64,000 bases of DNA from Tubiluchus corallicola (Eukaryota; Animalia; Priapulida). Shown piece by piece: positions 43,517 to 45,622 of the stretch. The notes beneath the pieces are model-generated. The model was not told the origin of the DNA, did no database searches, and was given only the letters and a program-made list of their open reading frames with translations. A program made the position numbers and the translations under genes. The stretch is taken from assembly GCA_030141605.1 (NCBI GenBank), contig JAQGDQ010000548.1, forward strand, positions 62,001-126,000, in the 5' to 3' direction. Position 1 is the stretch's first letter. Each line of letters starts with the position of its first letter.

Positions 43517-43772
43517 TGTGCTGACGCAATCAGAATGATCACGTGACCTGTGATTGTTCGGCGCGCATGAGTCTGCAGAAGAAGAGTGGTACAAGAGCGG
43601 ACATGTTGTTTAGATTACTAGTGTTGTAAAAGTTTCGTTAGCGTCTTTGTTTGTGTAATACAGAAGATATCAATAAACAAATTTTTGTGACAAGTTTTTA
43701 CTGTTTTACGATTTTTGATTATACAAGTAAATTATAGATAATTAGCTCTAAAAGTGACAGGGCATCGCCACA
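43517..43772 (+). repeat. 5' LTR (256 bp)
   Basis: tgtgctgacg...catcgccaca. Four substitutions and a 10-bp deletion relative to the 3' LTR. Confidence 0.93.
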
Positions 43773-43800
43773 AGTTTTAGAGCTAATTATCTATAATTTA

Positions 43801-44871
43801 TAATTTATTATCAATATTAGCTGAAGCCAGGACCAAGATGCCAACCCCTCCAAGAGGAAGAGCAGTCGTAAAGGCAATCGTGCGATTGCCTGACGCAATA
43901 CTAGCATGGTTGGGATGGATAATCGCTATTATCATGAATAAAAGAGGAGTAGTGTGTGCAGCTGTTGTGCTGTCACTTGTTAATGGAACAAGTCAAACCC
44001 CTACAATCAAGGGAGAGATTGATCTTCTGGTGGTAGAGTGCGCCCGGTGTGTGATCATGGCAGTTGATTTCAACTAGCCTACGATCCGTGAGAAAGAGTG
44101 GATAGTGATTCGGAACGAAGATTTGGATTGCAATGATCCGAGGGTTGGTATGCGAAGCGGATCGTGCGCAATTACCCAGGAAAGGGATGGATGGAAATCT
44201 GAACCCTGGCTTTGGTGCATTGTGGAAAGACCCGAAGGTAGTAAGTCGGAGGCTGATTATATGGCCCAAGAAGACTTACCTTCACCTAGGAGTAAGAGAT
44301 CGCTAGATGGTCCTACTCAGGACCTAGCCTCAACCAGATATACGGACAGCGGAGCCAACGTGAAGAGAAACGCCCAAAGAATAGAAGAAATGTGGTTGAT
44401 GCATGGCGGACACATAATCATTGCTATCGTAGCAGTGGTGCTAGTGTTACGAGGCCACCCAAAGATGGGCCTCGGAGTCATCGCAGTGGGACTGTCAGGT
44501 GTCCTCATTAAGGAAGTGTCAGGATCACGAGGAAGAGCGACTACTGCAAGTCCTGGTGATGGTCACCCTAAAGACGGAGTGCCACTTACAACCACATTAG
44601 ATGAACTACGTGTACATTGCTCCACCATTGACTCATCAACAGTACTGCGTGGCAATGAGCGAGAGCAGGTCTATATGGATTTGACTGAAGCGGCATGTAG
44701 AGTTCTCAAGATGCAGAACGATCCAAGACAAATAATTATTGTCCCAAAGAAAACCGACATAACGTCCGGATTGACATTTAATAAGGCTTATATTATCAAT
44801 GGTCAATTGGATGTCCACAGTGAAAGCGCATGTCCGGCAGGCAGCAAAAGTGACTGCCAAAGAGATAGACC
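43801..44871 (+). pseudogene. Endogenous viral element 2: flavivirus-like capsid end/anchor, prM and N-terminal E
   Basis: One frame with a single stop at 44075. NKR|G plus signal anchor; CVIMAVDF (cf. CTLMAMDL); EDLDC (EDIDC); furin site RSKR|S; NVKRNAQRIEEMWLMHGG (AWKHVQRIETWILRHPG); two TMs; HCSTIDSSTVLRG..MDLTEAAC (RCIGMSNRDFVEG..IVLEHGSC); SESACP (TESRCP). Confidence 0.9.
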
Positions 44872-44959
44872 AGATATCAATAAACAAATTTTTGTGACAA
44901 GTTTTTACTGTTTTACGATTTTCGATTATACAAGTAAATTATAGATAATTAGCTCTAAA
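44872..44959 (+). repeat. Internal partial LTR copy (88 bp)
   Basis: agatatcaataaac...agctctaaa matches the 5' LTR except for one base. Confidence 0.9.
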
Positions 44960-44963
44960 TTCA

Positions 44964-45323
44964 ATGCCTAAAATAGGTGACGTAGTTCTGGTTCAGGATG
45001 ATCTTCCAAGGAGTCAATGGAGAGTTGGGAGGATACTTTCTCTAAAGCATAGCCATGATGAGATGTGCAGATCAGTTTCTGTGAGGCTACCTTCAGGCAA
45101 TATCATCAATCGTTCTATTACCCAGCTTTACCCCCTTGAACTGCCTGCAACACAGACCAGTATTACAGATGCCAAGCAGTACAAAACATATAACACTACA
45201 CGGCACAAACAAATTAACACACCACAAATAGTTATAGAGCCCACTAATAAGCGATCAAAAAGAAAGGCAGCTGCGAAAGCTGGTGACAAAATTCGAGGGT
45301 GGGTCGAGGACCCAAATTTGTAG
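44964..45323 (+). pseudogene. BEL/Pao polyprotein C-terminus (DUF5641)
   Basis: PKIGDVVLVQDDLPRSQWRVGRI...RSVSVR...INRSITQLYPLE, followed by a basic tail. Confidence 0.88.
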
Positions 45324-45356
45324 GTAGGCTGTTCACGGCATCTTCCCTCGGGGGAG

Positions 45357-45622
45357 TGTGCTGACGCAATCAGAATGATCACGTGACCTGTGATTGTTCG
45401 GCGCGCACGAGTCTGCAGAAGACGAGTGGTACAAGAGCGGACATGTTGTTTAGATTACTAGCGTTGTAAAAGTTTCGTTAGCGTCTTTGTTTGTGTAATA
45501 CAGAAGATATCAATAAACAAATTTTTGTGACAAGTTTTTACTGCTTTACGATTTTTGATTATACAAGTAAATTATAGATAATTAGCTCTAAAACTTGGGC
45601 GAAGTGACAGGGCATCGCCACA
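45357..45622 (+). repeat. 3' LTR (266 bp)
   Basis: Preceded by the PPT and followed by the CACGC TSD. Confidence 0.93.

Follow-up and report, generated by a model that had tools for sequence, protein, structure and literature searches.

How endogenous viral elements (EVEs) enter animal DNA, whether as hybrids with long terminal repeat (LTR) retrotransposons or as loose cDNA at breaks, is a matter of debate, and both routes may occur (PMC8048955). The subject of this work is a unit of about 2.1 kb in a stretch of 64,000 nt from the priapulid Tubiluchus corallicola (assembly GCA_030141605.1, contig JAQGDQ010000548.1, positions 62,001 to 126,000; referred to as the window). It is probably a dead BEL/Pao-type LTR unit, bounded by a target site duplication (TSD) and holding a broken, likely flavivirus-derived C-prM-E fragment, which would have arisen in one aberrant reverse transcription followed by integrase insertion into a piggyBac transposon. 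Pieces of RNA viruses inside BEL/Pao elements have already been published (PMC5177903, PMC8048955, PMC7642597). In Bursaphelenchus xylophilus, eBxnv-1 consists of a nodavirus RNA-dependent RNA polymerase placed between the two LTRs of a Bel/Pao element of the Tas clade (PMC5177903). It shares with the present unit a plus-strand RNA virus sequence found in single copy between Bel/Pao LTRs, and its authors proposed copy-choice by reverse transcriptase (RT) and subsequent integration. However, eBxnv-1 retains its primer-binding site along with pol domains, and its viral cargo is a polymerase gene (PMC5177903), whereas in the present unit gag, the pol core and the primer-binding site are gone, the cargo is flavivirus-like and structural, and the joints can be read base by base. 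The term "target site" was not found in the text of that report, where the TSD is named in the LTRharvest settings. A second case is CFAV-EVE-1 of Aedes aegypti, a flavivirus sequence embedded between fragments of a Bel/Pao (277) LTR element (PMC8048955). Here too there was co-integration with Bel/Pao, and its non-contiguous pieces imply multiple template jumps; in contrast with our unit, it is more than 97% identical to a living virus and includes NS1, and the parts of the main text of that report yielded neither a two-LTR, TSD-bounded unit nor a fold-back joint (PMC8048955).

Further information comes from infected Aag2 cells, in which virus-LTR hybrid DNA was found in episomal form (PMC6797480). 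These hybrids, together with LTR-associated EVEs (10.1101/127498), resemble the unit in the copy-choice between LTR-element RNA and viral RNA and in their same-polarity bias, 543 of the 614 LTRs nearest to EVEs in Aag2 cells sharing the polarity of the EVE; moreover, the flavivirid EVEs of Aag2 are biased to the 5' end of the open reading frame (ORF) (10.1101/127498), as is the virus-like part of our unit. However, the Aag2 hybrids were mostly formed with Ty1/Ty3 elements, and flavivirus EVEs paired with Ty3/gypsy and chuviruses with Pao Bel (PMC6797480, 10.1101/127498), whereas the present unit would have come from a BEL/Pao-type family and be fixed in the germline between TSD copies. Viral envelope genes within BEL/Pao LTRs are also known from Anakin, a Pao element with a chuvirus glycoprotein (PMC7642597), and from Atlas, of the Belpaoviridae, with a phlebovirus-like Gn-Gc (PMC9094657). 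These are multi-copy or intact and hold the whole glycoprotein, Atlas being one Gag-Pol-Env frame free of stops (PMC7642597, PMC9094657); the present unit, by comparison, is found at single-locus depth, lacks gag and the pol core, and has a broken and truncated cargo upstream of its pol tail. In the literature consulted, neither a BEL/Pao unit with two LTRs and a TSD around flavivirus structural genes, a case that supplementary tables on Aedes EVEs could hold, nor a fold-back rescue of virus capture by an LTR element was found.

The whole LTR unit spans 43517..45622 (all features are on the + strand of the window unless otherwise stated). Its 5' LTR (256 nt, 43517..43772) and 3' LTR (266 nt, 45357..45622) both run from TG to CA, and their alignment gives four substitutions plus one 10-nt gap, as a preliminary description of this DNA had claimed, the missing segment being that of the 5' copy. 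Three of the four substitutions fall at CpG, as would be expected from decay in a methylated genome, and four changes in 256 nt suggest an insertion that is young yet not fresh, in uncalibrated terms. The unit is flanked by the perfect 5-bp duplication CACGC (43512..43516 and 45623..45627), whose sixth bases give no in-register extension, and the host of the insertion is a decayed piggyBac-type DNA transposon (41899..46186, bounds set by its sub-terminal inverted arms), with a DDE_Tnp_1_7 match in the flank (Pfam E=1.1e-31). The duplication was said to split the piggyBac motif TRRWP between TR and RWP; this was borne out by in silico excision of the unit with one TSD copy, which restores the open frame ...CTRRWPYSML.... 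The polypurine tract (PPT) proposed earlier corresponds to a 7-nt purine run, GGGGGAG (45350..45356), adjoining the 3' LTR. Ahead of it, the 3' tail of the element's pol (44951..45323), which ends at the pol stop codon, matches DUF5641 above the curated cut-off (Pfam E=2e-9), confirming the assignment made previously; Pfam lists this domain as one of unknown function, and we take it to be tied to the C-terminus of BEL/Pao pol. Only 33 nt separate the pol stop from the 3' LTR, which leaves no room for an env slot.

The element's own genes have been lost: neither gag nor protease, RT, RNase H and integrase sequence was found within the unit by ORF translations and Pfam. No primer-binding site follows the 5' LTR; in its place, starting on the terminal CA, there is an inverted piece of the LTR, and because of this the copy is counted, from its sequence, as a defective derivative of a BEL/Pao-type family and not as a full member. 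This missing site was absent from the preliminary description, as was a second flavivirus-E relic at ~31.85-33.4 kb, designated here EVE2.

The virus-like part of the unit, hereafter the cassette (43801..44871), is one frame of 1,071 nt with one stop at 44075-44077, matching the one-stop frame of some 1.07 kb first reported. The other five frames hold 8-28 stops, and none of 2000 base shuffles gave any frame with one stop or fewer; for these reasons, 43801-44871 was once coding sequence. It starts with an AU-rich leader (43801..43837) that precedes the first ATG with the frame open throughout, either a remnant of a viral 5' untranslated region or a truncated capsid frame, and for which neither a significant RNA fold (z=-1.33) nor an Rfam match was found. 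Then come a short basic and hydrophobic capsid-like stretch and a signal-anchor-like segment (together 43838..43987), recognized by motif and position with no database match. The capsid-like part is 36 aa long from the first ATG to the KR/G site (43940-43948), after which the anchor follows, and it may be truncated or internally deleted; orthoflavivirus capsids have about 100 aa, are helical and are cut at a dibasic site before the anchor. The pr-like segment (43988..44299) comprises 104 codons including the stop, with five Cys and no internal sequon, whereas the orthoflavivirus pr has six Cys and an N-glycan, and it closes on a furin-type RSKR (44288-44299); both this and the KR/G site had been pointed out before. 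The M-like segment that follows (44300..44524) has 75 aa. It had been described as carrying two transmembrane helices; its C-terminal half is indeed hydrophobic, but the second helix is not separate at a hydropathy cut-off of 1.6. An unexplained spacer of 29 residues (44525..44611, register taken from profile alignments) leads to an N-terminal E-like piece (44612..44871), which in two-sequence profiles aligns to about E residues 24-78 and ends before the fusion loop. No non-structural flavivirus gene was seen in the unit.

The cassette as a whole thus has the layout of basic stretch, KR/G, hydrophobic anchor, a segment bearing Cys, RSKR, a run of exactly 75 residues with a hydrophobic end, and E-like start, which is the order of orthoflavivirus C-prM-E, with weak similarity in M and profile-level similarity in E; it departs from it in the 36-aa capsid-like part, the five Cys of pr and the 29-aa spacer before E. 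It is unable to encode a working fusion protein, and if it has any role at present, the candidate would be the supply of antisense small RNA.

The key to the identity of the E-like piece was EVE2, a separate relic outside the LTR unit that was found through the ORF listing about 10 kb upstream (31894..33238). It has a Flavi_glycoprot match in Pfam (E=4.5e-4, below the curated cut-off) and matches 119 PDB sequences at E<=10, the best, at E=9.2e-6, being E chains. The greater part of an E gene can be recognized in EVE2, including a clear fusion loop, a region resembling the stem and a hydrophobic end, and it is broken by a stop at 32212-32214 plus frameshifts. In alignment it is 18% identical to the E piece of the cassette, and it appears to come from a different virus. 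When the two were joined as a profile, the scores reached 41.3 bits on 9owe_A and 39.9 on 9mvc_A (best E=1.4e-9), compared with 25.4 and 24.5 bits for the EVE2 N-terminus alone and with 12.8 and 15.8 bits, respectively, for a control in which EVE2 was paired with 90 aa of unrelated piggyBac sequence. Once the fusion loop had been omitted, the first 57 residues of EVE2 alone gave no PDB match and the cassette piece alone gave three, all to unrelated chains, while for the loop-free pair all 15 matches at E<=10 were flavivirus E chains, the best (E=0.023) covering E residues 24-78. Sequence of E domain I/II in the cassette is therefore seen with the two-sequence profile and in the loop-free test, and not with a single sequence. 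Independently, the M-like segment, searched from its second residue against 177,635 PDB sequences, had as its sole match at E<=10 the 75-aa M of dengue (3j27_B, E=1.4), with AQRIE..W..H.G in register.

The colinearity with flavivirus C-anchor, pr, M and E put forward in the preliminary description consequently stands as regards the layout, the M match and the two-sequence E profiles, and falls short as regards single-sequence matches and fold. We regard a flavivirus-like origin of the cassette as very likely, and its identity as prM-E is held with moderate-to-good confidence, from profiles and not from a fold; no claim is made that its source belonged to the genus Orthoflavivirus. The locus contains two flavivirus-like relics, both highly divergent.

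Public sequencing runs provided a view of the locus beyond the assembly, since four of the six listed rows, from two studies, held the cassette. Two of them (X1 and X2) are of the same sample, S1, and another (X3) is of a second sample from the other study, its library kind being unspecified. In S1, one contig covers the cassette and its joint to the following LTR piece (43869-44913 with one other letter in X1, 43865-44913 with two in X2), crossing that joint by 42 letters. X3 holds 43942-44087 (146 letters, two changes) and 44071-44215 (145 letters, no changes), and as these pieces span the stop of the cassette, the stop is common to S1 and X3. The empty-site joint 43510->45622 is present in X1, X2 and X3 contigs; this empty site may be a paralogue, because the piggyBac is about 2.5 times deeper than its flank. 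As to depth, in X1 the values were 206.6 for the cassette, 179.4 for a unique flank contig and 169.8-182.6 for EVE2, against 1012-1481 in the pol-tail bins and 2733-6454 in the LTR bins; in X2, they were 9.28 for the cassette, 110-120 for the pol tail and 203-272 for the LTR. As a rough guide, the cassette is at single-locus depth and the family parts are 5- to 30-fold deeper.

These contigs also show other copies of the family in X1-X3. Their LTRs carry an extra segment of 31-37 nt (at window positions 43651-43659 and 45491-45499), and they occupy several further insertion sites, one of them apparently in a copy of a repeat at ~34.6 kb (joint 34649->45357).

The region of EVE2 has features of its own. 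It is covered by X1 contigs over 31847-33593, and no LTR of the focal family was found beside it. A high-copy repeat lies just upstream (~31.28-31.76 kb). In X1 its depth equals that of the flank, unlike in X3, where contigs within 31970-33422 have depths of 145.8 and 54 (one bin sums to 927) compared with 9.9 in the unique flank; this excess could reflect amplification or expression. The X3 contig at 31970-32603 differs by one letter, with no gaps, and retains the EVE2 frameshift region. Past the hydrophobic end, 33246-33548 (+) is, by eye, a coiled-coil-like charged stretch and not an NS1-like start, with no meaningful Pfam match.

The history of the unit is best read from its four internal joints, J1 to J4. 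The cassette had been placed between LTR fragments that were not described; two exist, an inverted one of 30 nt and a direct one of 88 nt. At J1, the inverted piece (43771..43800, - strand) is a 100% copy of LTR positions 212-241 in the numbering of the 266-nt form, and it starts on the terminal CA of the 5' LTR with zero intervening bases, at the place expected for the primer-binding site. Because it matches the 266-nt LTR over 30 nt and the 256-nt LTR over only 26, its template still contained the 10 nt that the 5' LTR later lost. The last 27 nt of the 266-nt LTR can form a hairpin with a GGCGA/TCGCC stem, in which one bulge sets the terminal CA on the TG at LTR 240-241 (-4.0 kcal/mol when forced, compared with a minimum free energy of -4.5, DNA parameters), and extension from the terminal CA so paired writes exactly the inverted piece. 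A random break would fall on this one base about once in several thousand, as estimated from the size of an element. J2 (43800/43801) comes after 28 added bases and shows a short tandem ATAATTT followed by the AU-rich leader. At J3 (44871/44872), which is bridged by the X1 and X2 contigs, the cassette breaks off within E, short of the fusion loop, and is joined to LTR position 149, the start of a direct copy of LTR positions 149-236 (44872..44959) that contains AATAAA. At J4, contigs of other family copies in X1, X2 and X3 match from 44951 and differ upstream; the LTR piece therefore overlaps the parental pol by 9 nt, and this microhomology, AGCTCTAAA (44951..44959), is common to both. Within the direct piece, position 44923 is C where both LTRs have T, which is either a later mutation or the result of copying from a second element RNA.

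All these observations could be integrated in a single event, in which the unit is most likely a one-off recombinant between virus and retrotransposon and not a member of an envelope-bearing lineage. This is the option that had been favored at the outset, and it fits the TSD-bounded unit, the polarity shared by the virus-like frame and the element, the microhomology and fold-back joints, the single-locus depth and the truncation before the fusion loop. Briefly, minus-strand synthesis would have made its normal first jump, after which RT would proceed through U3, the PPT and the pol tail as far as the 9-nt microhomology, where a switch (J4) would take it into the LTR of an element RNA for 88 nt, an already deleted element RNA being an alternative source for J4. 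RT would then switch (J3) onto viral plus-strand RNA inside E and copy back to near the start of the polyprotein. As no primer-binding site would have been copied, the normal second jump would be impossible. Instead, the PPT-primed plus-strand copy of the LTR, ending at CA, would fold back on its terminal hairpin, extend itself by 28 nt (J1), transfer to the viral cDNA's end (J2) and run through, producing a linear DNA with two whole LTRs; the family integrase would insert this DNA, duplicating 5 bp. Later changes would be the LTR substitutions, the deletion of 10 nt from the now palindromic end of the 5' LTR, at the foot of the new palindrome and flanked by AA repeats, and probably the stop. 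A more specific version is offered tentatively, as a possibility that we would not yet call probable: that an element without a primer-binding site and with captured RNA was rescued by hairpin self-priming, and that the cargo and EVE2 stand for two different orthoflavivirus-like viruses not yet sampled, of which one would have a minimal capsid and a pre-E spacer, both captured within ~13 kb at a locus acting as an EVE store.

Several observations weigh against this account. As to the identity of the cargo, no single-sequence match of the cassette to flavivirus proteins below E=1 was found in Pfam, protein and PDB searches; nothing matched its frame in Pfam, in three large searches of proteins, in two collections of contigs or in the ESM Atlas, nor did the pr-like segment, with its stop read as X, match the PDB. 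The structural check suggested in the preliminary description failed as well, two AlphaFold models having low confidence (predicted local distance difference test, pLDDT, of 38.6 and 44.6) and matching no known structure. The pairwise score of the E piece with EVE2 is not significant, being reached by 1175 of 5000 shuffles, BLASTP aligns the two at E=0.077 in another register, and the control with an unrelated partner for the E profile is a single one. As to the structure of the unit, J1, J2, J4 and the filled TSD joints were bridged by no contig among the matches listed, J3 was bridged in one sample only (S1), which is possibly the assembly's own source, and contig depth, as a rough guide, gives no copy number. 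As to the mechanism, the viral parent is unsampled, which places microhomology at J2 and J3 beyond measurement. Plus-strand strong-stop DNA, moreover, normally bears primer-templated bases past the LTR, so that an end exactly at CA would require the primer to be removed early, synthesis to stall or the 3' end to be processed.

The fold-back is also the point at which a different order of events has to be considered, namely that a full-length BEL/Pao element inserted first, generating the TSD, and that a later break deleted its interior, the gap being patched by end-joining with a fold-back of the 5' LTR, free viral cDNA and an LTR-templated piece. Short fold-back inversions do form at chromosome breaks, those of yeast yielding inversions of ~5-34 bp with microhomology as well as templated insertions (PMC11724301), and flavivirus EVEs, CFAV-EVE-3 and -4 among them, can integrate without LTR sequence (PMC8048955). 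In the window itself, EVE2, which no family LTR flanks, indicates that viral cDNA reached the region more than once. However, the left breakpoint lies exactly on the terminal CA of the LTR, which would be a natural end for an intermediate of reverse transcription and an arbitrary one for a break; all pieces but the fold-back keep the polarity of the element, and a full-length element at this site appeared in no joint among the matches listed. We therefore consider such a repair unlikely. The notion that the parts do not belong together, or that the cargo is not flaviviral and stems from another virus with a furin-cleaved partner protein or from the host, draws on the missing direct match or fold, on the short capsid-like part, the five Cys in pr compared with the usual six, the lack of a pr sequon and the 29-aa spacer, and, for a chimera of repeats made by the assembly, on the joints J1, J2, J4 and those of the TSD, unbridged among the matches listed. 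Against it stand the signals of M and E, which are independent and correctly ordered and spaced, the furin site being followed by an M-like segment of 75 aa; the X1 and X2 contigs spanning the cassette and J3; the X3 coverage of 43942-44215 across the stop; and a perfect TSD with a matching empty site, which is hard to obtain by misassembly. Misassembly of the unit is unlikely, and taken together the non-flaviviral and chimeric origins seem to us quite improbable.

The second option raised in the preliminary description, that the unit derives by deletion from a BEL/Pao lineage with flaviviral prM-E as its env, has precedents in Atlas, with its phlebovirus-like protein, and in Anakin, with a chuvirus G, BEL/Pao elements having captured a viral glycoprotein at least twice (PMC9094657, PMC7642597), and the captured part is here exactly the structural cassette, in sense orientation. 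However, a family-wide envelope is difficult to reconcile with a cassette at single-locus depth next to a pol tail and LTR 5- to 30-fold deeper, and with other family copies that run upstream from 44951 into sequence other than the cassette. Nor does the anatomy conform to that of an env: no slot is left between the pol stop and the 3' LTR 33 nt away, the cassette sits upstream of the pol tail, E ends before the fusion loop in a frame interrupted by a stop, the captured part extends to a capsid-like stretch and a leader, and no whole glycoprotein with a fusion loop is present. With no support from depth, from other family copies or from an env slot, we rate this origin as highly improbable, and retain the one-off recombinant.

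The surroundings of the unit are rich in repeats. Direct repeats are found around the piggyBac at 40312-41010/46612-47390 and 33907-34315/46223-46616 (82% and 90%); the former pair holds a short acidic ORF without a Pfam match and the latter a tRNA-Pro-like stretch at 34038-34131, and they are probably one composite repeat split by nested insertions. Pfam labels ORFs of the window as DUF4523, CENP-B/Tc5-type and Tc1/mariner DDE_3, and a C2H2 zinc-finger array and a decayed CR1/L2-like long interspersed nuclear element were recognized by eye; host and repeat genes lie at 206-895, 16659-18302, 23059-24684, 35614-39504 and 51384-52517.

The debate on the route of EVE entry has rested mostly on proximity statistics and episomal reads. 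With its pair of LTRs, its perfect TSD, an empty site that is known and four joints that can be read, the unit offers a test case at base level, and it predicts hairpin self-priming at the LTR end, which is testable with the RT of the family. It also indicates that flavivirus-like EVEs of structural genes exist that BLAST, Pfam and the folding of single sequences do not reach. Among 1075 animal genomes screened, flavivirid EVEs were reported in only 36 species (PMC9752770), and relics such as the cassette and EVE2 may escape screens of this kind. Both relics point to unsampled flavivirus-like lineages in the ancestry of this animal, and the unit would be an unusually legible record of the entry of an RNA virus into animal DNA.

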